This document shows, in pieces, positions 192-10,959 of a stretch of DNA of 10,959 nucleotides. This DNA comes from Candidatus Micrarchaeota archaeon (GTDB taxonomy: Archaea > Micrarchaeota > Micrarchaeia > Norongarragalinales > UBA8480). The notes under the pieces are model-generated. The model had not been told where the DNA came from. It saw only the letters and a list, made by a program, of their open reading frames with translations, and made no database searches. Where the stretch lies: the NCBI GenBank assembly GCA_043805855.1, contig JAZDHP010000050.1, positions 1-10,959 of the forward strand, read 5' to 3'. The translations under genes were made by a program, and so were the position numbers. Within the stretch, counting starts at the first letter, position 1; every line of letters begins with the position of its first letter.

Positions 192-515
192 CTACACACG
201 GTACACTTGCAAATGGGGAATTCCGGCAATTTTCTTGCTGTTTTTCACGTTGAAAAACTTCCCCGCAACTGTAATAGCTTCCTTGCCGACAAAATTAAAA
301 GAAACATATTCATTTCCCTCGAGTTCAACTTTGATAACTTCGCTTGCCTTTGCCGCGGTTATCTTTTCGCCAGTGTAAAAAGCGCCGTAGGTTTTCAAGT
401 CCAACACTTTACCCCCTTCAGAGTATCTTTTTCCAATTAAATTAATGTCAGCCATTGCAATTACAACTGAAGTTCGGCCGCTGTAGTTACGTAAATGTTT
501 TTTAAAGTAAATCAT
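192..515 (-). CDS. DUF424 family protein (archaeal, function unknown)
   Basis: 107 aa with the DUF424 motif order recognised by eye: Y.K.H, V.A.AD..LIGK...EG...L, FY.GE, NFVG..AI, I.GIPHLQ at the C-terminus. Starts 4 nt after the upstream stop. Confidence 0.85.
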   Translation of the reverse strand: MIYFKKHLRNYSGRTSVVIAMADINLIGKRYSEGGKVLDLKTYGAFYTGEKITAAKASEVIKVELEGNEYVSFNFVGKEAITVAGKFFNVKNSKKIAGIPHLQVYRV

Positions 516-519
516 AAAA

Positions 520-1155
520 TTAGCACTTGAAATTGTTCACTACGTAATCTGCAACTGGCAAATCTTGAGTTAACTCTTGCGGAATTATTACCATTACCAT
601 TGCAACATATTGCTCGCGTTGTTCGTTTAATCGCTCGCAATTGTACGTTGCTTGGTAAATTGTAAAAGTGGAATTGGAAACGGACGAAAGCGCTGGGAAC
701 GAAGTGACTGTTTTTACTAAATGTGTTGCCACGCCGTTTGCGTTTGTAAACGTACTTGCAACTCCAGTGCTTTGCTCGGCGATTATTTCGTTGAACTGCT
801 GTTGCGCAGTTGTAGTTGTTGAATTGTCAACAAGAACTTCAATTATTTCCGGCATGCTGTTAACCATAGAAGCGTGGGCGCGGAAAACTGCCGTGTCTTC
901 AACTGGCTCTTCTACAATTAACCCTTGTGGATACTGTAAAGAAAAGCCCCATTCTTCGCTGTTGTATTTTAAAAATTTGTGCGTCTCGTTTACAGGCGTT
1001 GGCTTAAAAGACGGAAATAAAGTTTCGCGTGCGCTTGACGGTTTTAACTGTTGTACGCCGTTAAATGCAAATAACCAAATTGCAAAAATAAGCAATATAA
1101 TTAAAGTAACTGCAATGTAAATTCCATTTTTCTCATTTACTTTACGTTCAGCCAC
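520..1155 (-). CDS. Single-TM membrane-anchored protein with a PsbP/DcrB(Mog1)-like extracytoplasmic domain, ~211 aa
   Basis: TM helix GIYIAVTLIILLIFAIWLFAF. Motif KYNSEEWGFSLQYPQG is typical of the start of PsbP-like folds. Three sequons (NET, NST, NST). The ORF track starts at TTG 1206, but GTG at 1155 has AGGTGG 5 nt upstream and overlaps the giant gene's stop (GTGGCTGA), so it is the preferred start. Fold call is motif-based only. Confidence 0.7.
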   Translation of the reverse strand: MAERKVNEKNGIYIAVTLIILLIFAIWLFAFNGVQQLKPSSARETLFPSFKPTPVNETHKFLKYNSEEWGFSLQYPQGLIVEEPVEDTAVFRAHASMVNSMPEIIEVLVDNSTTTTAQQQFNEIIAEQSTGVASTFTNANGVATHLVKTVTSFPALSSVSNSTFTIYQATYNCERLNEQREQYVAMVMVIIPQELTQDLPVADYVVNNFKC

Positions 1156-4100
1156 TTGAACCACCTGCTGTTCCACCAACTGTACCGCTCTTCGTTGCTT
1201 TGCCAATTCCTTTTAATGCACTTTCGCTGCCCTTGTCCATTTCAAAGTCTTCACTTATATATTGGCTAACTTCTTCGCGTGTAATGTCGCCAACTTTGTA
1301 AGCGCCGTTTAAAATTGAACTATCTAGCGGCCTTTCTTCTGGAACCATTATAGAGTCAAAGAACAACTGGGCAGGTAACTTTGGACTGTTTATAACCGCG
1401 AACAAGAAGAAAGAATTGGATTGTAAAACTTGCTTGTAGTTCAATAAACACGCATCAGTACTTGAATCGCATAAATTAGCCAAGTAGAAAGACTCTGACT
1501 TGCATGTGCCATCCGCGTTTTGCCAGCATATCTTGTGAATTGAAGGCAACGTAGTTGCAGTTATTGGATTTTCAATGTGGTAAACGACCAAAACGTTCTT
1601 TGCGCTTTCTGGAACTTTTATTTCAACAGGCTGCACGTCAACATCTAAACCCAATTGAGTTGCAACTTGGGCGAGTAAACCACCAGCTGGACGAGCTACT
1701 TTTTTAGCCGTGCCTTTTATTTTACTCCACGTCGACGCTTTTTCTGCAGCAGTTTGAGTAGCTACAGTACCAACAGCAGTACCCGCTGCACTAACAGCAG
1801 CTGGTTTCAAAGCAGCTTTCGTAGCTTCCTCTAGTTCAGTTAACGCTTTGTTAACATCCTTAACAAAGCCCAGCGTCATTTTTCCATCTTTACCTACCAT
1901 CAGTTCAGTGAAATAAATTTGTTTACTAGCCACTCTCTTTGCAACCGCGTCTTTAACAACCGAAACTATTTTATCATCTTTTCCATTAGCAGCAAGCGCT
2001 TTCAAGTAAACCTCTCTAAGCGTTTGCTCCTGAATTCCAACTCCGTTTCTAAGCTCAGTTCCAAAAGTCATTTTTCCAAAAGATCTATCTAAAGTGGTTA
2101 CAGTCACACTTGCTTTAAGCGCATTAGTATTTCCACTTAACTCATTTACAATTCTTTGCAATTGATACTGATTACGAATATCCGTCCAGAAAGACAATTC
2201 CTTAGGTAAAACCTCCCTTTGGTTAGCTATTTCGGAAACTGCAAATTTAAACACTCCTTCGCCAGCATTTCTTTTTTCAGCTTTTAACAACGCACCAACC
2301 AACTGTTCACCACGATTGGTAAACTTACCCGCTTGCGAAAGTTGCTCATAACTATTAATTTCACTTAACACACTATCTACCGTTAGTGATTTAGACGCAG
2401 CAGCTGCAGTTCCTGTGCTTCCAGGTACGATTGTCTGCTTTGCTCCATATACCGCTGCTCCAGCTGCTCCTGGCGGAATTGCAGGCGATCCATCTCCGAG
2501 CCACGTTTCAACACCGTAAGTTGCTGCAACTGCAAGTGTACTGTAGCCAACCCAACCGCCTATGCTTGGAATTGCTGATCGGAAACTACTACCAGCTGCA
2601 GCAACTCTAGCACCAACTCCTCCCGTTCCTGCAACGCCGACAGGTGCGATTAGCCCGCCAACTGCGCCGAAAACAGCCGCGCGAACGCACCCGTTTAAAA
2701 CAGGACAAGAATCGTAACTACCGCCAGTTGTTAAATATGAACCGCCTTCGCCAACTATGCTTAATCCACATACAACTGCCGCTTGGCCTAAACCTTGGAA
2801 AATCTTCGCGGCAACAGGCGCGCCTATACCAGTAAGCACCGCGCCTATTCCAATTGCAGTGCCTGGACCAAGAATGGTCGTAATTTGTTCAACTGCTCTT
2901 TTGCCACAAAAGTGAGCTAAATTATAATGTTCCGGCAACGTGTATGAAATTTTCGGCGTATTTCTACCGTAAATTGTTTTTAGCAACGCGTTTGTCGTTG
3001 CGATGTCAGTTTTACTTGCCCCTTTTTGATACGGACCAAGCGAAAACCAACCTATAAACGAAGATAAGCCTTCGCCTTTGTTAAACCCAGCGCCTAGCTC
3101 TCTACCTAGATAAATATTGAAATCATCTTGCTTTCCAGCTAGTAACAACGGTGCATTGGCAACGTTGTCCGGACATGACGCAAGTGGAGTTGCACCTGTT
3201 ATTTGAATCTTGTCTTTTGAAGTGTCAACTGTTCCCAAAGCACCTTCAGAACATCCCAGATCAAGCCGCGCTTGAATTGCATAAATTCCACAGCCTTTTA
3301 GTATAGGTACGTTTGCAACATCGTAGACGACGTTTTGCGCAGTTAACGGTTGGCGCTTTACGTACTCTCCAAAATCTTGCTCAGTGTTTGCCAAATGTAT
3401 AATTGTAGTTTTAACGTAATTTGCGCCTGGCCCGCCTGGCGCGCAGAATAACATCCTTGAATCCGAGTCAGCTTTCTCCTTTGCAATTGTTGACAACTCA
3501 GCGATAAACGCATTGAACGAAGCTTGCGCCTGTTCGTAAGTGCAATAGTGTTTTGCGCATTGCGTTACAGGTGCAATTGCAGGAGCTGCGGTTACAATAG
3601 TTGTTTTACCAAACTCATCAGCATCCGCAAATTTAGTTTGTGCAGTTGTTGCGGTACTCGTGTCAATTTCTTGCGGTGCAATTTCTCCCCACGGCGAGTT
3701 CTTGTAAATTTCACTGTTTCCATTGTAAACATTTACCCGCACGGTTTTAGTGTAAACAACTGTTCCGTCAGTGGCGGTTATTGTAAATGACTCTTCTCCA
3801 TTCGTAGTAGTTTGTGGAGTGCAAAAAACGGCCTGTGCTTCGCCTTGCGCCATACTTGAAGGAATTTGACAGTTAACCGCACTTGAACCAGCTACAGTTA
3901 AACTAACTGCATTCTCGTGGTTGTTCACTAAAGTTAAAACACGCTCGTGATCCTCTCCAGTCCCTTTAAACGCAAACACAAATGGCCTCCCAGTTCTCTC
4001 GTTTAGATTATCATTAGAATAAGCGTAATCTACAAAAAATGAACGCATTGCCATGCTAGTTTGCGCTTCTTGGTCGCGGCTGCATTTATTTCCAGGCAAC

Positions 4101-7100
4101 ACGGATATTTTTACAGGTAAACTTACAGAACCAACCCAACCACTGTTGTCAGTTGCTTTGAACTTAACCTCAACAATCTTTTCAATTGGAGTTATAATGC
4201 ATTTATCGTCATGCGTTTCAGGCGGGATTGATAAAGATAGAGAAAACTTGTTGTTACACTCATTGTTTTCAGAAGTAGATAACTTATCCTGAGTGTGAGT
4301 TGTAACTGGCGTTAATTTAAACAATTCACGAGGTACACTTGAATCTGAAACTCTATAAATAAAAGAATCTCCAGCAGGGTAAACAACTTCCTTCCTCTTA
4401 TTAATTAAACATATTTTTTGGTCAGCTGTACGCGGCGACTTTCCTATATCTGCTTCTGTAAATGTAAATGATAATTGTGAACCGTCTTCAGTGCGCGCTT
4501 CTATGCCATAGCCGGCAAATGAAGACACAGATGGAAATATAGATTTACATGAAAGGAACCCAACTCGCTCGCGGCCAGTTACTTCAACTTCCTGCGCTCC
4601 GTTTTCAAGCGGCGGTTGTTTTATTTTTGCAGTTTGCGGGAATTGTATTTTCTTCACATTTGTAACGCCGAGTTTATAGTCGCTCTTGTAAACAAGTTCA
4701 ACGCAATTCGGGAAGTTAGATTGCATTGCACTTTTACGCGGATCTGGAGTTCCAGGCGGTAGAACAAAAGTTGTACTTGCGCGTAGTTGTGTTTGGAACA
4801 GCTGTTCATCTTGTTCAACTTCATTGCACGGGCTTAGAGAAATTTTTCCACCTTGTGAAAGTTCAACTTTCTTTCCAGCAAGCCGTGCGTTTGTAATTGT
4901 AAATTGCCCAGATGCAGACGGAAGAATGTCAGTAATTTGCTGGCGCGAGCCTTTTGACTTTACAGTTAATTGCACGCAGTTTTGCAACGCAATGTTTACA
5001 TTTGCTCCTGATTGCTGCGCTTGTGCTTCTAGCGGTAAGTCAATGTAAACTTCGTCTTCGTAAACAATTTCAAACTTTTCTCCACCAGCTGCCAATCCAA
5101 CGGGAGTTAATCTTTGAATTATTTGAATTGATGTAAACTGTGGAATCGCGTAGGAGTACTGCGTTCCAAAGTTACTTGCAAATTGATTATAACCTTGTTG
5201 CGAGCCATATCCGCTGTACGGGTCAAACGAGCCATAGCGTGGAGTTAGTGAAGAGAAAGGTGAATTTACGCTGTACTGATTATTGTAAGTATTAGCGCCG
5301 TATTGATTGTAACTTGAGCCATAGGGATTAGAGTTAAACGCGTTCATTCCGCCAAACGAATCATAGGGCGAGGACATTGAATTAGTAAACGCGCGTTGTA
5401 TTCCCGGCGGCAAAATTACATCTGCAGTTGGCAGTGTGAATTTAATTGAACCATCTGGAAGTGTTGTCTGCTGTGCGTTTGGCAAAATGCTAATAAATGC
5501 AGGGAATGGAAAGTTAACTTGAAACATGTTGTTGCCGTTGGAAATATGCTGGGGAGCTAGTTCAATAGCACTACCTGCTGGTACAGTTGCACGTTGGTCA
5601 GTTACCATTGCACCTGGGTTGAATACAACTAATTCTGAGTACGGTAGTCTAACTGCTTGTGAGCCGTCTTCTGCAGTTGTCTTTGCGGAAATTGTTCCAG
5701 GGGGAAACATAAAAGTAGAGTCAAACGGGAGTACAACCGCCATTGCACCGGGTACAAAACAGCGCATCTTGGAAGTAGTTGCAACTGTCACTGCAACGTT
5801 TTTTACAGTTGTCATTCCTTGGAAACCAGCGATAAATTCAATTACTCCATTTTCGCTTAAGTCTTCAAAAACACATTGCTGCGCCATGAACAACTGCGAA
5901 GGCGAAGCACTTGCAGTAAATTCAACTGACCCTCCAGCTGGGATAACCGCCGAAGCAGGTTTAACATATAACCCAAGCAAATCATTTTGCTGGTTTACTA
6001 ATACAGGCCGTGGCGCGTTGTTTGTAATTTTTATCTTCTGAGAATCGCGAGATTTACGAGGCAAGTCAAGTGCAAAATCTAGCGAGTCAGCTGAAAAATC
6101 AACAAGTTGTTCAAAAGTTTCCTGCTGTAGAGAAGCAGTTGCTTTGAACGTTACAGTTTCCCGTTGCGAGTGACCTGCAACGCGCGCATTTACGTTAATT
6201 GTTCCATCATATTGCTCGCGAAGCACATTTGGCTTAGAGGCGAATGAAAGCACATTGTCGTTGATTTTTCCAAGTAGAGAAATTGTCTTTGTTTCGCCGC
6301 CTTTTAATTTTACTGTTGATCCGCTTAGCCTTACGTTTGAATATTTCGGCGCGTTGTTTGAAAATGCAGTGAGGGCAACTTTCACCTCTTTGTTTGGAAC
6401 TAAATTAGTAATTGCAAATGAAGCTCCTTCTGTTTCTTCAAATGAGTCAATTGCAATTGACATTACGTTTGTGCGGTCAATTGAAATTATTTGTTTTGCG
6501 TTTGAAACTATTTTACCGCTTTTAGCACGAAAGCCTTCAGCTTGAACACTATAAGAAATGTCTCCAAATGAAGATGGCGCTATTTCTGCAGTATATTCAC
6601 CTGGTTTTTCCTCTTGCGCTTCCGCCTGTGCTTCAAGAACTTCACCTTTTGCAAAAATAACCCTTGCACCCACAACTTTTGCACCAAATGAATCAGTAAC
6701 TTCAATTTTCACTTTGTTATCTTGAAACGCGATTAACTCTTGCGGTTCAACTTTTACTTTTAGCTGGTTGCCAGCGTTTGAAATTACAACGTGTAAATCT
6801 TCTTCAAAAGACGCGCCTCCGCTTGTTGTGAAAGTTATTGAAACGTCGTTTGAAAACTTCACTGCTTTTAGCGAGAAGAAACCTTCGCCGCCAGGCGCAA
6901 CTTTTGCAGTTGCTGAATTACCATTACCACTACCTAGCTGCACTGCATCGCTGTCAGTTTGCAACGAGAGGGAAATTTCCGCGTTTGTTCCGCGCAGTGG
7001 CTGCGGCGGCACAAGCACGCGGTAGTTTAGCTTGAACATTTCAGGCACAACTGCTTCGAACTGCTGGAAGCCGCTTTTCTTACCTGTTGACCCTTCGAAC

Positions 7101-9577
7101 CATAACTCTAGACAAGCGTTTTCACTGCACTTTCCTTCAAAGTGAATTAGGATAGCATCTGCTTCGCTTAACTGCGCGAGGTAAGGAGATTTGGAAACTC
7201 CAGCTGCTGCATCTTCGGGGTTACGGTAAACTTCGCTTGAACCACTTGAAACTGGAACAACGTACGCTGTGCGGTGAAACAGTTCAACATTTGCTTCTTG
7301 AACTGCGCTTGTTTCAATTTGTACTTTTAACTCTTTTGTACCTTCAAATTTATCAAAACTAAACTCCGCCCACTTGAACTTACTACTTGCAAGTGAAGCA
7401 CTTGTGCCAACTGTTGACGGCAACGGCGTTAAATCACCGTTTGCGCTTACGCTCGTGTTAGTTATAGTATTTACATTGTATTCCGCGTCTTGTTCAACTG
7501 GCTCAAAGTAATCTGCAATTGAATAGTCAATTCCACCAATTGCATTGCCGCCATCTGAACTAAAAGAAGTTATAGCAGCTGCACCGCTCTCAATGTCAAC
7601 ATCTTTTTCTCCAACTTGTATAAACGCTTTGCAACTTGTAAATTCAAGCGAAGGCGGGGATTTTAGTAAATATTTTGCAGTGTAGCGCGTTGCTGGGCTT
7701 AGTACAGAAACTCGTTTGTTTTTATCGTTGAAAACCCCAAGGAAAACTAATTCAGTTGAATCTGCAACGTCGCTTGAAATAAGTTCAAACACTTGCGCAT
7801 TGTTGTCACCGGGAACAACGGCTATCTTTGTTGTTAATTGTTCAAAACCAGACGCGGTTACTTTTACATTTACGTCGCCACTTTCAATAACTGCAATGCA
7901 CTGGTTGTTTTTCACTGTGCAGCTTGTTGCGTTGCCTGCGCTTGTAAGTTGAACAACTGCATTTTCAATAGCGTCGCGCGTAAAATGGTCAAGAACAGTT
8001 ACGTTTACAATTCCACTTGCTGGGCTTAATATTAATTCAACTTCTTGTTCGGTTTCATCAGTTTCGCTTGATGGAGTTACATTTACATTAACCTCTCCCT
8101 GGTACTCGCTGTTGCTTGCCTTGAAATTCGCCTCTCCAAGTGGAAGTGATTCAAACCGCGCTTTGCCGTCTAGCATAGTTGTTTTTGAAATTCCAGTTTG
8201 CTTTCCATTAAGAAATAACGCTACTGACACTCCGCCGACTTCGTTGCTGTTGCGATCAATTGTAATTATTGTAATTGCGCCTGAATTTGCACTGCTAGCT
8301 TGGTGCAAGATGAAATTTTGTTCAGTTGCGCTTGTCACTTCTTTTTGTAAAGGTAAATAACCGTCTTTTGAAACTGCAACTAAACACGTTTTACCAAGTT
8401 CAACGTCGAAACCAGCAATTCCACTTTCCGGCGTTTTAACTTCAGTAACATTACCACAGTACAGTGCAACGTTTGGCCTAGTTACTTCGTTTCCATCGTC
8501 GTCAATAATTTTGACAACTATGTTCTTTGAATTTTCAGCAGTGCGCATTGTAAGCCGCGCAACTATTTCTACTTGCGGTTCGTTTACAGTTACACTTGGC
8601 CTAACCCACGTTAAGAAATTAGTCGCAATTACGTTGATTGAAACGTTTGCCCCAACTTCAATTTCAACAGGCAACGCTGAACCGTCTTCGCCAGTTGTTG
8701 AAGAAGTAATTTGGCTGCCTGTAAAGTCGTTGATAAATTTGACAGTCGCGTTTGCAACCGGAGTTAGTCCATCTTCTTGATAAACTCTAACATACACTGG
8801 CGCAGTTCTCGTCTCGCCGTCGCGAAACATTCTAATTGGAACGTTTAAATTGCCAACTCCAATTTCGATAACTTTCACTTCTTGACGGTAACCTAACGCG
8901 CTGGCGATGATTGTATAGTTTGAATTAAACGCAACGTTGAACAACGCGCCGCTAGTTGCGTTTTGAACTTCAATAATTGAACTATTGCCCGCTAACAGCG
9001 TTATATCTGCGCTTGTGGGGCCAGTGATTGAAACTGAAATTGCCGCTAGGGGGTTGTCGTTGCGAGTTAAACTAATTGCAAAAGTTTTCTTGTTTTCGCT
9101 TTCTTTTAAACTAACTTCGCGCGTGGTTGTCTCGTGGTCAGGCGCGTTTACCGTCACCTTTGCACTAGTTGCCGGAATCTTGTCAAACTTCGCCCTTCCG
9201 TCAGCGCCAGTAACTAAATTTTGAGACTGTGTACCGTCTTTGTCAGTGAATTGCAGTTGTACCGCCGCACCTTCGATTGGCACATTGTCAATTCCCTTTA
9301 CTGTAAATTCAAAAGTTCTAGAAACTGGTGTTGAAAAAGATAGAAACGCAACGTAAATTCCAGCGACTATTAATAATAGTAAAACAATTAGCGCGGGTAA
9401 TGGAGGGATTCCTTTTTGTTCAAAGAAGTCACTTACCTTTCTTAATGGTATTCCTTTGTCGTCGCTCCAGTCTAGGAACTCTTGCCATTTGATTGATAGG
9501 CTTTCTAGGAACTCGTCGATTTTTTCACGTAGAGTAAGTGAAGACTCTTCTTTAACCCCAGAATCAAAATCCGCCAA
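1148..9577 (-). CDS. Giant (2809 aa) N-terminally anchored cell-surface protein with carboxypeptidase-regulatory-like repeats and a distal hydrophobic/helical module
   Basis: Uninterrupted 8430-nt ORF. TTG start directly preceded by an in-frame TAG, with AGGGGT just upstream. TM helix at aa ~60-79, six beta-sandwich repeats at aa ~87-599, further beta-rich domains, many paired Cys, and a Gly/Ala hydrophobic block at aa 2232-2379. Confidence 0.93.
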   Translation of the reverse strand: MADFDSGVKEESSLTLREKIDEFLESLSIKWQEFLDWSDDKGIPLRKVSDFFEQKGIPPLPALIVLLLLIVAGIYVAFLSFSTPVSRTFEFTVKGIDNVPIEGAAVQLQFTDKDGTQSQNLVTGADGRAKFDKIPATSAKVTVNAPDHETTTREVSLKESENKKTFAISLTRNDNPLAAISVSITGPTSADITLLAGNSSIIEVQNATSGALFNVAFNSNYTIIASALGYRQEVKVIEIGVGNLNVPIRMFRDGETRTAPVYVRVYQEDGLTPVANATVKFINDFTGSQITSSTTGEDGSALPVEIEVGANVSINVIATNFLTWVRPSVTVNEPQVEIVARLTMRTAENSKNIVVKIIDDDGNEVTRPNVALYCGNVTEVKTPESGIAGFDVELGKTCLVAVSKDGYLPLQKEVTSATEQNFILHQASSANSGAITIITIDRNSNEVGGVSVALFLNGKQTGISKTTMLDGKARFESLPLGEANFKASNSEYQGEVNVNVTPSSETDETEQEVELILSPASGIVNVTVLDHFTRDAIENAVVQLTSAGNATSCTVKNNQCIAVIESGDVNVKVTASGFEQLTTKIAVVPGDNNAQVFELISSDVADSTELVFLGVFNDKNKRVSVLSPATRYTAKYLLKSPPSLEFTSCKAFIQVGEKDVDIESGAAAITSFSSDGGNAIGGIDYSIADYFEPVEQDAEYNVNTITNTSVSANGDLTPLPSTVGTSASLASSKFKWAEFSFDKFEGTKELKVQIETSAVQEANVELFHRTAYVVPVSSGSSEVYRNPEDAAAGVSKSPYLAQLSEADAILIHFEGKCSENACLELWFEGSTGKKSGFQQFEAVVPEMFKLNYRVLVPPQPLRGTNAEISLSLQTDSDAVQLGSGNGNSATAKVAPGGEGFFSLKAVKFSNDVSITFTTSGGASFEEDLHVVISNAGNQLKVKVEPQELIAFQDNKVKIEVTDSFGAKVVGARVIFAKGEVLEAQAEAQEEKPGEYTAEIAPSSFGDISYSVQAEGFRAKSGKIVSNAKQIISIDRTNVMSIAIDSFEETEGASFAITNLVPNKEVKVALTAFSNNAPKYSNVRLSGSTVKLKGGETKTISLLGKINDNVLSFASKPNVLREQYDGTINVNARVAGHSQRETVTFKATASLQQETFEQLVDFSADSLDFALDLPRKSRDSQKIKITNNAPRPVLVNQQNDLLGLYVKPASAVIPAGGSVEFTASASPSQLFMAQQCVFEDLSENGVIEFIAGFQGMTTVKNVAVTVATTSKMRCFVPGAMAVVLPFDSTFMFPPGTISAKTTAEDGSQAVRLPYSELVVFNPGAMVTDQRATVPAGSAIELAPQHISNGNNMFQVNFPFPAFISILPNAQQTTLPDGSIKFTLPTADVILPPGIQRAFTNSMSSPYDSFGGMNAFNSNPYGSSYNQYGANTYNNQYSVNSPFSSLTPRYGSFDPYSGYGSQQGYNQFASNFGTQYSYAIPQFTSIQIIQRLTPVGLAAGGEKFEIVYEDEVYIDLPLEAQAQQSGANVNIALQNCVQLTVKSKGSRQQITDILPSASGQFTITNARLAGKKVELSQGGKISLSPCNEVEQDEQLFQTQLRASTTFVLPPGTPDPRKSAMQSNFPNCVELVYKSDYKLGVTNVKKIQFPQTAKIKQPPLENGAQEVEVTGRERVGFLSCKSIFPSVSSFAGYGIEARTEDGSQLSFTFTEADIGKSPRTADQKICLINKRKEVVYPAGDSFIYRVSDSSVPRELFKLTPVTTHTQDKLSTSENNECNNKFSLSLSIPPETHDDKCIITPIEKIVEVKFKATDNSGWVGSVSLPVKISVLPGNKCSRDQEAQTSMAMRSFFVDYAYSNDNLNERTGRPFVFAFKGTGEDHERVLTLVNNHENAVSLTVAGSSAVNCQIPSSMAQGEAQAVFCTPQTTTNGEESFTITATDGTVVYTKTVRVNVYNGNSEIYKNSPWGEIAPQEIDTSTATTAQTKFADADEFGKTTIVTAAPAIAPVTQCAKHYCTYEQAQASFNAFIAELSTIAKEKADSDSRMLFCAPGGPGANYVKTTIIHLANTEQDFGEYVKRQPLTAQNVVYDVANVPILKGCGIYAIQARLDLGCSEGALGTVDTSKDKIQITGATPLASCPDNVANAPLLLAGKQDDFNIYLGRELGAGFNKGEGLSSFIGWFSLGPYQKGASKTDIATTNALLKTIYGRNTPKISYTLPEHYNLAHFCGKRAVEQITTILGPGTAIGIGAVLTGIGAPVAAKIFQGLGQAAVVCGLSIVGEGGSYLTTGGSYDSCPVLNGCVRAAVFGAVGGLIAPVGVAGTGGVGARVAAAGSSFRSAIPSIGGWVGYSTLAVAATYGVETWLGDGSPAIPPGAAGAAVYGAKQTIVPGSTGTAAAASKSLTVDSVLSEINSYEQLSQAGKFTNRGEQLVGALLKAEKRNAGEGVFKFAVSEIANQREVLPKELSFWTDIRNQYQLQRIVNELSGNTNALKASVTVTTLDRSFGKMTFGTELRNGVGIQEQTLREVYLKALAANGKDDKIVSVVKDAVAKRVASKQIYFTELMVGKDGKMTLGFVKDVNKALTELEEATKAALKPAAVSAAGTAVGTVATQTAAEKASTWSKIKGTAKKVARPAGGLLAQVATQLGLDVDVQPVEIKVPESAKNVLVVYHIENPITATTLPSIHKICWQNADGTCKSESFYLANLCDSSTDACLLNYKQVLQSNSFFLFAVINSPKLPAQLFFDSIMVPEERPLDSSILNGAYKVGDITREEVSQYISEDFEMDKGSESALKGIGKATKSGTVGGTAGGSSG
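1161..1166 (-). promoter_or_regulatory. Shine-Dalgarno-like site for the GTG at 1155
   Basis: Minus strand reads AGGTGG-TTCAA-GTG, matching part of the archaeal GGAGGTGA consensus. Confidence 0.55.
7781..9319 (-). repeat. Six tandem ~80-aa carboxypeptidase-regulatory-like / prealbumin-like beta-sandwich domains (protein-level repeats)
   Basis: Recurring pattern V.V.D..G.P(I/V)..A.V.L ... T..DG.A.F ... V...G(Y/F), e.g. NVPIEGAAVQL..TGADGRAKF, TPVANATVKF..TGEDGSA, NEVGGVSVAL..TMLDGKARF, DAIENAVVQL..TASGF. A seventh similar unit lies at ~6510-6720. Confidence 0.75.
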
Positions 9578-9583
9578 CTAAAA

Positions 9584-9589
9584 ACCCCT
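9584..9589 (-). promoter_or_regulatory. Shine-Dalgarno-like site for the giant gene TTG start
   Basis: Minus strand TAGGGGTTTTTAG-TTG; the only G-rich patch in a T-rich leader. Confidence 0.5.
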
Positions 9590-9673
9590 ACAAATAAAGG
9601 AAAAACTAGCTTAAAAAAGCGAGCTTCTACAGGAGGAAAAACACCAATAAGCATAAAAACAAAAAACGTTAGG

Positions 9674-9700
9674 TGAAATTATATTTTCACCATATTTAAA
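9674..9700 (-). promoter_or_regulatory. TATA-N3-operator module 1 (degenerate operator TGAAATTATATTTTCA)
   Basis: Palindrome 9674-9689 (extends to GGTGAAA-N6-TTTCACC, 9672-9691), then 3 nt, then TATTTAAA 9693-9700 (TTTAAATA on minus). Confidence 0.6.
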
Positions 9701-9708
9701 CACCAAAG

Positions 9709-9757
9709 CTTAACTCCAGTTAAGGAAAAGTGAGCGAAAAGTTAAACTGGAGTTAAG
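9709..9757. repeat. 13-bp perfect inverted repeat with 23-nt spacer; each arm is itself a near-palindrome
   Basis: CTTAACTCCAGTT (9709-9721) / AACTGGAGTTAAG (9745-9757). TTAACT-CC-AGTTAA at 9710-9723 and TAAACT-GG-AGTTAA at 9743-9756. Confidence 0.8.
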
Positions 9758-9799
9758 GATTAGTAAGCCCTAATTACAAACATATCATGCTTCTGTTAA

Positions 9800-9949
9800 C
9801 TTACACCTCGCGACTCGCACCTAACAAGCGCCTAAAGGCGCTGGCTTATCTGACGCTCGTCTCTTGCAAGCGAGGTGTAAGGCCTTAACGAAGCGCGCTT
9901 CGTTAAGTAAAGCAATTTTGAACTTCACAAAAGCGCAATAAACGCGCCC
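9800..9949 (-). ncRNA. Candidate structured ncRNA, leader or REP-like element
   Basis: 12-bp perfect stem 9800-9811/9870-9881 enclosing hairpin AGCGCC-TAAA-GGCGCT (9827-9842); 24-bp perfect palindrome 9884-9907; hairpin 9931-9949. Additional pairs are G-U only on the minus strand. No family recognised. Confidence 0.4.
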
Positions 9950-9969
9950 TACAATATAAAAACAAGTAG

Positions 9970-9996
9970 TGAAAGTATACTTTCAGCCTATTTAAA
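9970..9996 (-). promoter_or_regulatory. TATA-N3-operator module 2 (perfect 16-bp palindrome TGAAAGTATACTTTCA)
   Basis: Palindrome 9970-9985, then 3 nt, then TATTTAAA 9989-9996; same spacing as module 1. Confidence 0.65.
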
Positions 9997-10011
9997 TACA
10001 AAACAATAAAG

Positions 10012-10048
10012 CAAAGTTATTTATATACTATGAAAGTATACTTTCATA
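10012..10048 (+). promoter_or_regulatory. BRE/TATA promoter of the ATPase gene with overlapping operator (module 3)
   Basis: CAAAGTTA (10012-10019), TTTATATA (10020-10027), 3 nt, TGAAAGTATACTTTCA (10031-10046; extends to a 20-bp perfect palindrome 10029-10048), ATG at 10048. Spacing fits a leaderless transcript. Confidence 0.75.
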
Positions 10049-10959
10049 TGCATAAAACACGTGAAGAAGAGCGGGAGCTTTTTGGCCAGCTTGAAAAAAA
10101 AGAAGCACTAGCTTTGATTGGGCCTAGGCGCGCAGGTAAAACTACAATTGCATTGCGATTACTGCGCGACTGGAAGGAAAATGGCGGGCAAGGTAATTAT
10201 ATTGACTTAGAGGCGCTTGGAGCGCCGTCTACCGCACTTGAACTAATTAAAGAGATTGAAAAAACACCTGCTGGAGGGCTAGTTGTACTGGATGAAGTTC
10301 AAGCAGTTGACAAGTGGGTAAAGGCAGTTCGTGGAGAAATTGAAACTGGAAAACGTCATTTAATTATTAGCGGTTCAAGCGCAGCGCTCTTATCTGCAGA
10401 AATAGCGTCTTCATTAGCAGGCCGGGCGGTTCCAGAAACTATTTTGCCGCTTTCTTTTCGCGACGCGGTTAACTGGGGAATAACTAGTTTAGATGAATAT
10501 CTTCGCATTGGCGGATATCCCGAATGTGTTTTGCGCCCATTGGACGCGCCTAAGTTACACAAATTATATTTTGAACTAACAATTCTACGCGACGTTGCAG
10601 CTAGAAAAGGAATTAGGGAAGTTAAACCACTATCTGACCTAGCGTTGATATTGTTATCCGAGTCAGGTAAGACAATTGCAGCGAAGAAAACCGCAGAAAA
10701 ACTTGGAATAAGCCAACCTACATTTCGCTCTTTCATAAGTGCCTTGAATGAAGCATTTCTCATATTGTCAATTGCACCGTTCGTAAGGTCTCCTAGAGAA
10801 AAGCTAATTGCAGATAGCCGGCATTACGCTTATGATACTGGCCTTCAGTCTACTGTGAGCGTTTCGCTTAGTGAAGATTTTGGCCGTAGGTTTGAAAATG
10901 TAGTTGCTATTGAACTGGTCCGGCGCGGCTATTCTTTATCTTATTTGCAGGAAGATGAA
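10048..10959 (+). CDS. COG1373-type AAA+ ATPase (AAA_14 + HTH + DUF4143), 3'-truncated by the window edge
   Basis: Manual translation, 304 codons open to the edge. Walker A GPRRAGKT (10120-10143), Walker B VVLDEVQ, ISGSS, SLAGR, LPLSF, GGYPE, ILRDV, HTH-like AAKKTAEKLGISQPTFRSFISAL, YAYDTGL and G..FENVVAIEL. An alternative in-frame ATG exists at 10030. Confidence 0.92.
   Translation, partial: MHKTREEERELFGQLEKKEALALIGPRRAGKTTIALRLLRDWKENGGQGNYIDLEALGAPSTALELIKEIEKTPAGGLVVLDEVQAVDKWVKAVRGEIETGKRHLIISGSSAALLSAEIASSLAGRAVPETILPLSFRDAVNWGITSLDEYLRIGGYPECVLRPLDAPKLHKLYFELTILRDVAARKGIREVKPLSDLALILLSESGKTIAAKKTAEKLGISQPTFRSFISALNEAFLILSIAPFVRSPREKLIADSRHYAYDTGLQSTVSVSLSEDFGRRFENVVAIELVRRGYSLSYLQEDE

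Follow-up and report, generated by a model that had tools for sequence, protein, structure and literature searches.

The window, the whole 10,959-nucleotide stretch of DNA analysed here, comes from a Micrarchaeota genome of 1.03 Mb (completeness 92%). It carries a gene for a giant surface protein at positions 1148..9577 on the minus strand, the strand of all features described below. The gene encodes 2809 aa between a TTG start, which lines up in the alignment with the methionine of full-length orthologues, and a TGA stop at 1148-1150. Collinear full-length orthologues measure 2704-2716 aa and are 45-49% identical to it; column conservation is based on an alignment of 23 sequences. Directly downstream lies a partner gene of 211 aa (520..1155). 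At the gene junction (1148..1166), an AGGTGG motif at 1161-1166 precedes the partner's GTG start (1153-1155), and the partner reading frame overlaps the TGA of the giant. Such an overlap had been reported in the initial annotation, which was made from the sequence alone, and it holds for the GTG at 1155, GTGGCTGA. This is also the start of the database's own 211-aa gene call; a mechanically called partner ORF of 228 aa, with a TTG start at 1206, is too long. From this arrangement, the partner gene is predicted to be translationally coupled to the giant gene.

A DUF424 gene (192..515; Pfam E 3.2e-5, just under the cut-off) follows the partner. It does so in only 14 of 30 loci, for which reason it was dropped as a component of the system; it is probably a neighbour by shared descent, outside the module. 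The upstream genes vary by locus (PIF1 helicase, unrelated large Cys-rich ORFs, a GalT-like gene), and a conserved third gene was likewise dropped.

The giant begins with a conserved N-terminal module (aa 1-60; 9398..9577) with the motif ..KW..FL.W..EKG.PL....LE.KGIP.LP. This module, presumably cytoplasmic, has no Pfam match and is common to at least four other large proteins of the same genome. It is followed by a single strong transmembrane anchor (aa 61-83; 9329..9397), in agreement with the N-terminal anchor that had been proposed: one strongly hydrophobic segment (aa 63-81) after the conserved module of about 60 aa. The segment scores 2.93 on the Kyte-Doolittle scale and -4.2 kcal/mol on the Hessa scale. 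The topology would be N-in/C-out, so that the tip would be the part farthest from the cell.

Beyond the anchor, the stalk (aa 86-603; 7769..9322) is made of six tandem CarboxypepD_reg-like beta-sandwich repeats (PF13620). The six repeats listed in the initial annotation were recovered by hhalign profile self-comparison at aa 86-172, 177-253, 258-345, 350-425, 432-519 and 521-603, together with a weak seventh stalk-type repeat at aa 955-1027. The whole giant matches the CarboxypepD_reg family in four stretches (E 4.3e-24; 85.1 bits, cut-off 32.3). Scanned singly, each of the six repeats has CarboxypepD_reg as its best or near-best Pfam match (E 9e-10 to 0.1), and the first alone exceeds the gathering score. 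The stalk carries nine of the ten N-X-S/T sequons of the giant.

The body (aa 604-1990; 3608..7768) contains conserved Cys pairs and weak Ig-like signals, of the Big_1/CarboxypepD_reg type near aa 955-1027 and, via homologues, of the MSP/PapD/Cep192 type near aa 1155-1245. It had been described as rich in beta structure and cysteine. The cysteines stand: there are 33, nearly all in columns kept in 16-23 of the 23 homologues. The beta character has its sole basis in the weak Ig-like Pfam matches of homologues. Conserved Cys columns extend to aa 2710 (16-23 of 23 homologues), and these residues may form disulfides; together with the two invariant cysteines of the partner, they speak for an extracellular tip. 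A Q/N/S/Y/G-rich low-complexity insert at about aa 1405-1475 (5153..5365), delimited by alignment, composition and low occupancy, is missing from the closest orthologues.

The tip has four parts, modelled together (820 residues) at a pLDDT of 69.8. The first is a conserved Cys-rich alpha/beta domain (aa 1991-2225; 2903..3607) with the motifs C..HYC, GCG.Y, ANAPL, GPY and Y.D..FC. It is present in all 19 giants reaching that region, is modelled with pLDDT values mostly of 76-96 and has no Pfam match. The second part is a Gly/Ala-rich, charge-poor hydrophobic region (aa 2226-2400; 2378..2902). Here too the initial annotation was sound, as Gly and Ala make up 35% of aa 2225-2414 versus 16% of the rest of the protein. 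Charged residues amount to about 10%, compared with 18-22% in the stalk, body and Cys domain, and charge-free stretches of 18-26 residues each succeed one another over about 130 aa (positions 2232-2356). The prediction places four or five helices within aa 2221-2358; the long apolar ones (aa 2221-2249, 2253-2283 and 2291-2309) are modelled as an antiparallel bundle with middling confidence (pLDDT 54-91), and aa 2314-2398 are modelled with pLDDT below 50. Conserved residues of the region include C2224, C2270, the C2291-x3-N-x-C2297 motif and, in the first helix-helix turn, a basic residue (K2258, R in homologues).

The third part is a variable helical domain (aa 2401-2635; 1673..2377) free of both cysteines and sequons. 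It corresponds to the charged Cys-free domain seen earlier: there is no Cys between 2297 and 2684, and no other part of the giant is less conserved. It ends in a cationic stretch (aa 2615-2635), which had been taken for an amphipathic helix. That description holds in part: the net charge is +5 and the helical moment about 0.5, but the model there is of low confidence. The last part is a conserved beta-rich cap (aa 2636-2809; 1151..1672; pLDDT about 90), whose cysteines had also been noted and of which four, C2684, C2692, C2703 and C2710, are kept in 22-23 of the 23 homologues.

The partner consists of a short N-terminal tail, a transmembrane helix (aa 8-31), a linker of about 30 residues and a PsbP/Mog1-fold domain (aa 59-211). 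The helix is strong, with Kyte-Doolittle values of 2.3-2.9 in 19 of 20 loci, and C173 and the C-terminal C211 are invariant in all 33 aligned sequences. Compared with known structures, the predicted model has the alpha/beta sandwich of the PsbP/Mog1 superfamily. At the profile level, the match to PsbP_2 (PF18933) reaches 17.2 bits, or 16.3 bits in a six-frame genome search, below the gathering threshold of 27; among the 33 relatives, five match PsbP_2 and two match PsbP (PF01789) at E <= 0.01. Both the coupling and the PsbP-like nature that had been assigned to the partner are borne out. The PsbP/Mog1 fold occurs across many proteins of unrelated function. Unlike its structural relatives (cyanobacterial PsbP, 2xb3; mycobacterial LpqN, 6e5d, and MTC28, 4pws; yeast Mog1p, 1eq6), the partner is tethered by an N-terminal transmembrane helix and has neither a lipid anchor nor a lumenal location. 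The final residue of the chain belongs to its invariant Cys pair, there is no photosystem context, and its gene regularly stands right behind that of a giant surface protein.

The same fold superfamily includes the Eag/DUF1795 chaperones of T6SS effectors (EagT6, 6xrf; SciW, 6xrr), which are described as shielding effector transmembrane helices (eLife 2020;9:e62816; Nat Commun 2026;17:1401). However, Eag chaperones are soluble cytoplasmic proteins that bind N-terminal transmembrane domains in a T6SS context, whereas the partner is predicted to be membrane-anchored and outside the cytoplasm, the apolar helices lie near the C-terminus of the giant, and this archaeon has no T6SS. The partner does not fit the Eag definition of a soluble cytoplasmic binder of transmembrane helices, and its model resembles PsbP itself more than the Eag chaperones.

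Both genes are restricted to a single order of Micrarchaeota. Of 48 further genomes from this order, 46 matched the tip profile, so that homologues retain the tip module as the initial annotation required, and 42 of the 48 contained the partner; neither was found in the 352 genomes sampled elsewhere in the phylum. The window's own genome has one copy of the tip. In 24 of 30 loci, the partner follows immediately on the C-terminus of the giant, and the partner's transmembrane helix starts 3-132 nt past the giant's stop in 16 of 20. In 20 longer stretches that were fetched, an ORF of at least 2556 aa was present in 17 and one of 1901 aa in another, and the remaining two were cut by a contig end. 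From these sequence comparisons, the giant and its partner are predicted to be a two-gene cell-surface module and a single-copy core feature of the order. Relatives of the giant are few (15 among 1.84 billion representative proteins), and the named homologues are all annotated as 'hypothetical protein'. Among public sequencing runs, no RNA run was listed as a source of the sequence, and two DNA runs contained small shares. No account of the family turned up in the literature on giant surface proteins, fusogens, adhesins and carboxypeptidase regulatory domains in Micrarchaeota and DPANN archaea.

The initial annotation had compared this layout with that of contact-dependent polymorphic toxins such as CdiA and Rhs. 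Its anatomy, the coupling to a PsbP-like partner and the retention of the tip in homologues all stand; the toxin comparison does not. In a CdiA/Rhs-type system, the stalk would deliver a C-terminal toxin via the hydrophobic translocation region, and the downstream gene would encode the immunity protein. The layout is superficially alike, as CdiA/Rhs proteins, teneurin-like type-II giants and the present protein are all long repeat filaments, anchored or secreted, in which a hydrophobic or pre-toxin stretch precedes the C-terminal end and a small gene comes next. A feature search with aa 1990-2400 also listed PT-TG (0.85, rank 23) and DUF637 (0.85, rank 30) clusters among scores of 0.83-0.85, which count only as leads because they lie below the required 0.9. 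However, no Pfam match to Rhs, YD, FHA, PT-VENN, DUF637 or PT-TG was obtained with the whole giant, 19 tips or 15 bodies, and the giant has no FHA, YD or Rhs repeats, no VENN-type boundary and no toxin domain. The variable part is internal, between two conserved parts, and the cap (aa 2636-2790), with its four cysteines, is conserved across the order. Rather than a variable immunity gene, the downstream gene is one conserved PsbP-fold family (33 sequences aligned), and each genome has one copy of the locus and no orphan toxin or immunity cassettes. With C-terminus and downstream gene both conserved at a single-copy core locus, the polymorphic-toxin reading is largely refuted, and we consider it very improbable.

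The tip differs from the rest of the giant in its sequons and in its divergence. Across 23 homologues, the stalk has 129 N-X-S/T sequons where about 109 are expected. The hydrophobic region has none (about 17 expected) and neither does the variable domain (about 29 expected), so that together they have none against an expectation of about 46, and the cap has five against about 27. The genome baseline is a seen/expected ratio of 1.11 (345 ORFs). The oligosaccharyltransferase STT3/AglB was detected in 48 of 60 further genomes of the order but not in that of the window, at its 92% completeness, so the sequon argument depends on relatives. In all seven close pairs compared, conservation is lowest in the variable domain (26-42% identity, versus 58-81% in the first part of the body), and the outer domain of the partner is 37-51% identical in four pairs. 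In a comparison with a genome of the same genus, identity is about 37-42% for the partner and about 55% for the DUF424 protein next to it; the pair is therefore considered to evolve faster only than the giant's own body, and not than the genome as a whole.

The apolar helices are marginal by both scales. No 19-aa window reaches a Kyte-Doolittle value of 1.6 in 10 of 19 homologues, and nine of 19 do reach it. The best Hessa window of the hydrophobic region scores between +1.5 and +4.8 kcal/mol in all 19, compared with -0.7 to -4.8 kcal/mol for the N-terminal anchors of 14 giants with a fetched N-terminus, with the proviso that marginal helices can insert co-operatively. By these measures, the helices appear too weak for ordinary stop-transfer transmembrane segments. 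In most homologues, a glycine-zipper (small-xxx-small) pattern was not enriched over shuffles.

Alternatively, the apolar bundle could be a second anchor in the cell's own membrane. Passing through it four times, an even number, the bundle would make the giant an arch held at both ends, with the variable domain and cap outside and bound to the partner. The partner's strong transmembrane helix and short linker would bring only membrane-proximal targets within reach, and a membrane-anchored partner fits a membrane-proximal C-terminus of the giant more simply, which is a point against a distal tip. The number of predicted helices and the conserved basic residue in the first turn are also in line with an arch, as are the weak Foldseek matches of the whole tip model in the PDB, all of which are polytopic transporters. 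However, those matches have E values of 0.39 or above and TM-scores of at most 0.23, and segments with positive Hessa and low Kyte-Doolittle windows are not expected to halt Sec translocation. In addition, the apex of such an arch would be the body, yet the body is the best conserved and the C-terminal end the fastest evolving. We regard a second anchor as improbable.

Other searches with the tip returned no known family. At E <= 5 the tip had no Pfam match, and 19 tips gave only two single, chance-level matches; no toxin or enzyme family was found in it. NCBIfam returned nothing for either protein, and neither the sequence of the whole giant nor the profiles of tip and partner matched any PDB chain below E 0.45. 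When the 820-residue model was searched whole with Foldseek, the best E value in BFVD was 0.18, and no fold match to known fusion proteins of class I-III or the fusexin/HAP2 type was obtained at E <= 0.001 in the PDB or BFVD. Language-model features in the ESM Atlas retrieved unnamed clusters of Bacillota proteins of about 180 aa (0.88-0.91), which, like the PT-TG and DUF637 clusters, count only as leads and probably reflect composition. Judged by these searches, the tip module appears to belong to no known family. The giant was also dropped as a candidate for the main S-layer protein: S-layer domain profiles (S_layer_N, PF05123) had no match in the giant, the tip or homologue bodies, and the main S-layer protein of cultivated Micrarchaeota is described as a different, 101-kDa PF05123 protein (bioRxiv 10.1101/2021.04.28.441871).

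It is possible, if on the unlikely side, that the giant is a structural or adhesive protein (a spacer, an adhesin or an S-layer-associated scaffold) that enters no membrane. Its apolar bundle would be permanently buried or would oligomerise, and the partner would be an assembly or docking factor. The marginal hydrophobicity, with 10 of 19 homologues lacking any Kyte-Doolittle window of 1.6 or more, is in keeping with a buried bundle, and the four conserved cysteines of the hydrophobic region could staple a compact fold. A core gene inherited vertically within the order is usual for envelope components, and the other large proteins of the genome, at least four, that share the N-terminal module and stalk and have other heads suggest a general display platform. 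On the other hand, serial charge-free stretches with so few charged residues are unusual for a soluble domain, the absence of sequons and the fastest divergence at the tip fit an interaction surface better than a scaffold core, and the separate PF05123 protein counts against an S-layer role.

The conserved gene pair is probably a candidate cell-contact device. The reading that we prefer, tentatively and at somewhat less than an even chance, is a core surface module with an exported apolar tip and a PsbP-fold helper that makes contact with another cell and is no polymorphic toxin. The apolar helices would be exported and kept soluble and glycan-free, because their hydrophobicity appears too low for Sec export to halt at them in the cell's own membrane. 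The partner would sit on the outside of the membrane, at the point where the tip, being C-terminal, would emerge last, and, by analogy with the Eag chaperones, might act as a holdase or assembly factor and perhaps protect the cell from its own tip. On contact, the tip would bind another cell via its variable domain, and the apolar helices would engage either a protein partner or the foreign membrane. That the tip might insert into the membrane of another cell is plausible. Such insertion is compatible with the marginal hydrophobicity, the absence of sequons and the fast evolution of the tip, all of which would suit a buried core, or a second anchor in the membrane of the cell itself, as well.

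Marginal Gly/Ala helices that are held soluble until triggered are known from viral class I fusion peptides, colicin/Bcl-2-type hairpins and phage tape-measure proteins. The giant resembles these membrane-active elements in its Gly/Ala-rich marginal helices, which have a C-x5-C loop beside them; it differs in having no sequence or fold match to them and in combining an N-terminal anchor with an apolar region near the C-terminus. A bolder version of the contact reading, which we hold to be a long shot, would make the pair a new archaeal device acting on membranes between cells. Here, a metastable, disulfide-stapled apolar bundle would be carried on a type-II-anchored stalk tens of nanometres long, loaded by a PsbP-fold holdase outside the cytoplasm that shields the cell's own membrane, and inserted into the host membrane. 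Insertion would lead to attachment, a pore or the beginnings of a cytoplasmic bridge, and host specificity would lie with the fast-evolving helical domain. Such a device would be analogous to the fusion machinery of viruses and to the Eag-effector pair of the T6SS, with sequence kinship to neither.

Among DPANN surface proteins, the SPEARE proteins of Ca. Nanohaloarchaeum antarcticus reportedly contain protease, adhesion and restriction endonuclease domains; none of these was found in the giant, which has its own tip and partner and occurs in one Micrarchaeota order only. Both are very large surface proteins in small-genome DPANN archaea, and SPEARE proteins have been suspected of host contact (PNAS 2019;116:14661).

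The means by which DPANN archaea attach to other cells and obtain their lipids and metabolites are a standing question, and we know of no defined contact protein in Micrarchaeota. One DPANN system has been imaged in detail, with connecting nanotubes described as being of host origin (Nat Commun 2024;15:7066). The present locus is a concrete candidate for a contact protein, conserved across one order and divisible into separable parts: the apolar helices, the variable domain, the cap and the partner. Its signature is unusual, a stalk with potential glycosylation sites bearing a tip whose hydrophobic and variable parts have none, and the partner would be a new context for the PsbP/Mog1 fold, extracellular and next to a giant protein. 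Even if the tip were inert, the giant family would represent an unnamed surface-protein architecture and a marker of its lineage.

The window spans an entire contig (10,959 bases) from a genome of 1.03 Mb that is 92% complete. Its longest ORF (1148..9577, minus strand) encodes a stalked surface protein of 2809 aa, hereafter the giant. Three full-length, collinear orthologues (2704-2716 aa) are 45-49% identical to it from end to end, and its TTG start coincides with their Met in the alignment, so the giant is a real gene. Among the species-level genomes, five of six related loci are labelled Candidatus Micrarchaeota or Micrarchaeia (the sixth only 'archaeon'), which supports the DPANN origin guessed in the initial annotation. 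All named homologues are annotated as 'hypothetical protein', and no RNA run among public data was found to contain the locus. Two relatives (G115:C2 and G225:C8) encode family members with open frames of 5182 and 5172 aa.

The N-terminal anchor and the six stalk-like beta-sandwich repeats proposed from the sequence were both borne out. A conserved module (aa 1-60), without a match in the Pfam scan and common to at least four other large proteins of the genome, is followed by the sole strongly hydrophobic segment (aa 63-81; Kyte–Doolittle 2.93). The stalk (aa 86-603) consists of tandem repeats delimited by profile self-comparison (86-172, 177-253, 258-345, 350-425, 432-519 and 521-603), which also revealed an extra weak copy in the body (aa 955-1027). 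CarboxypepD_reg matched the whole giant (E 4.3e-24) and all six stalk pieces when each was scanned separately. The family search with the body (aa 604-1990) gave no family above threshold, while weak Ig-like matches (Big_1, MSP/PapD/Cep192/HYDIN-type) recur in homologues. Specific to the giant of the window is a Q/N/S/Y/G-rich insert (~55 aa, around aa ~1405-1475) that the closest orthologues lack; it appears prion-like (5153-5365, minus strand), with 47 N+Q+S+Y within aa 1401-1500. In two relatives (L044 and L056) the early part of the body contains an insert resembling Cupredoxin_1 (E 6e-9 and 2e-4). Nearly all of the 33 Cys lie in columns kept in 16-23 of the 23 homologues, and the conserved ones occur as neighbouring pairs as far as aa 2710, for which disulfides of an extracellular protein would be the best explanation.

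At least four more large proteins of this genome combine the N-terminal module, a TM helix and a CarboxypepD_reg stalk with different distal parts [C5:15794-23098(-), C5:1-5142(-), C57:919-6360(+) and C30:3-4169(-)]. They range from 1389 aa upward, the longest having 2435 aa, and together resemble a stalked display family in which the heads are exchangeable.

Upstream, an intergenic stretch (9578-10029) separates the giant from a divergent gene encoding an AAA_14 (E 1.4e-24) and DUF4143 (E 3.4e-15) ATPase (10030-10959, plus strand) that runs off the contig. Relatives lack this ATPase at that position and have a PIF1-type helicase or unrelated genes instead, and comparison between loci found no conservation of the genes upstream of the giant. 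The GC-rich segment 9700-9950 (minus strand) folds at -93.2 kcal/mol (z -5.1, with none of 200 shuffles as good) and contains perfect 12-bp stems (9800-9811/9870-9881 and 9884-9907). No hits were obtained there with Rfam or ARAGORN; the segment may represent a structured RNA that lacks annotation, or an intron-rich tRNA. Three copies of the palindrome GTGAAAnTATAnTTTCA fall within 360 bases (9673, 9969 and 10030), two of them in a 46-nt direct repeat beside TTTAAA-type boxes and the last on the AAA_14 start codon (ATG). Only seven other loose matches (≤2 mismatches) exist in the genome, and the palindrome may be an operator for divergent promoters.

The tip (aa 1991-2809) has only 15 relatives, query included, among 1.84 billion representative proteins, all of them giants of the same family or fragments thereof. 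Pfam scans of this tip and those of 18 relatives gave no family matches, PDB sequence searches were empty and fold searches with the whole 820-residue model returned nothing specific. As initially suspected, the distal part of the giant matched no described family in these searches. Four parts can be distinguished. A Cys-rich alpha/beta domain (aa 1991-2225; pLDDT mostly 76-96) is present in all 19 giants extending that far. It is followed by a charge-poor hydrophobic region (aa 2226-2400) in which G+A reaches 25-35%, against 14-22% elsewhere, in all 19 homologues examined, and which has four conserved Cys (C2224, C2270 and C2291-x3-N-x-C2297). AlphaFold2 predicts three long helices here (aa 2221-2249, 2253-2283 and 2291-2309), which the structural aligner handles as a putative antiparallel bundle; the model of aa 2314-2398 is of low confidence. 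The third part (aa 2401-2635) is a helical, Cys-free domain of variable length, the least conserved of the giant, ending in a stretch of net charge +5. A beta-rich cap with four conserved Cys (aa 2636-2790; pLDDT about 90) completes the tip.

The hydrophobic region is more apolar than every other part of the ectodomain. However, 10 of 19 homologues have no 19-residue window with Kyte–Doolittle ≥1.6, and on the Hessa biological scale the best window scores +1.5 to +4.8 kcal/mol in all 19, against -0.7 to -4.8 for the N-terminal anchors of the 14 giants whose N-terminus was fetched. A halt in the translocon is therefore not expected, and the region may be either a buried core or an element that becomes membrane-active conditionally. 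These figures speak against the apolar helices being a second anchor in the cell's own membrane, with the giant forming an arch, as does the conservation gradient along the protein; the short tether of the downstream partner favours such an arch, which we consider quite unlikely.

The variable domain is the most divergent region in all seven close giant pairs (26-42% identity, against 58-81% for the first part of the body), and the hydrophobic region (39-56%) and cap (38-65%) also fall below the body. The outer domain of the partner is 37-51% identical in four close pairs. Since a neighbouring gene of housekeeping type shares only about 55% identity with its counterpart in the same genus, the claim is limited to a gradient within the giant and does not extend to unusual speed relative to the genome.

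N-X-S/T sequons, counted by region in 23 homologues, were slightly above expectation in the stalk (129 seen, about 109 expected) and below it in the body (111, about 249), the Cys-rich domain (18, about 42) and the cap (5, about 27), and none were seen in the hydrophobic region (about 17 expected) or the variable domain (about 29). All ten sequons of the giant in the window lie between aa 198 and 707. As the genome-wide seen/expected ratio is 1.11 (345 ORFs), a cytoplasmic tip would show about the expected number, not zero, and we infer an exported tip kept free of N-glycans by selection. The oligosaccharyltransferase STT3 was not found in the organism's own, incomplete genome (92%); elsewhere in the order it was detected in 48 of 60 genomes, two of the three same-genus ones among them. 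Large secreted-looking proteins of the own genome are either sequon-rich (69 seen against 37 expected) or sequon-free (0-3 against 9-21), examples being C55:8839-12780, C5:46016-50086, C29:50065-54042 and C11:2-3670, which suggests two surface-protein classes by N-glycosylation.

The partner gene (520..1155, minus strand) most plausibly starts at the GTG at 1155, with AGGTGG 5 nt upstream. It overlaps the stop codon of the giant, as had been noticed, in the form GTGGCTGA, and a 211-aa product identical to this call is present in the protein collection. Its fold compares best with cyanobacterial PsbP 2xb3 (15.8; rmsd 2.6 Å over 137 residues), followed by MTC28 (13.0), LpqN (11.8), EagT6 (10.6), Mog1p (10.3) and SciW with the Rhs1 TM domain (9.8). 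The Pfam PsbP_2 score is below threshold (17 bits versus 27), and 5 of 33 relatives match that family. The label 'PsbP-like' thus suits the fold, not membership of the family. Two Cys, including the C-terminal residue, do not vary across the 33 sequences, which points to a location outside the cell.

A sample of 400 further genomes from the phylum was searched. Of the 48 from the same order, 42 had the partner and 46 matched the tip profile, showing that homologues retain the tip; neither was found in the remaining 352. Each genome carries a single such gene, and in the organism's own genome the tip occurs nowhere else. In 24 of 30 loci (1.5-kb flanks) the partner comes immediately after the C-terminus of the giant, and an ORF of 2556-3805 aa precedes the partner in 17 of 20 longer stretches (of the other three, one has an ORF of 1901 aa and two are truncated where the contig ends). 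The TM start of the partner falls 3-132 nt past the stop of the giant in 16 of 20 loci. In the other four (L053, L057, L052 and L055), 396-1926 nt lie between giant and partner, and at least L053 has ORFs inserted there. DUF424 comes after the partner in just 14 of the 30 loci. The proposed analogy with the polymorphic toxins CdiA and Rhs fails on its defining features, since conservation extends to both the C-terminus and the downstream gene, the locus is passed on vertically in single copy, and the searches detected no Rhs, YD, FHA or pre-toxin family.

As a general class, giant surface proteins have been described from DPANN archaea; neither the literature searched nor any family library contained this family, its tip or its pairing with a PsbP-fold protein outside the cytoplasm. 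What remains is a stalked display protein whose exported, glycan-free tip, fast-evolving relative to the body, would be organised around apolar helices. That the giant is purely structural or adhesive, with its helices as a buried core, is a possible though doubtful reading. Our tentative preference, held at somewhat less than even odds, is that giant and partner form a contact device. The co-produced partner would be membrane-anchored on the side where the tip, at the C-terminus, is the last part to exit the translocon. By analogy with the cytoplasmic Eag chaperones of T6SS effectors, which share its fold superfamily, it would serve as holdase or assembly factor, holding the apolar helices soluble. 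Upon contact, these helices may then engage a foreign membrane or protein.
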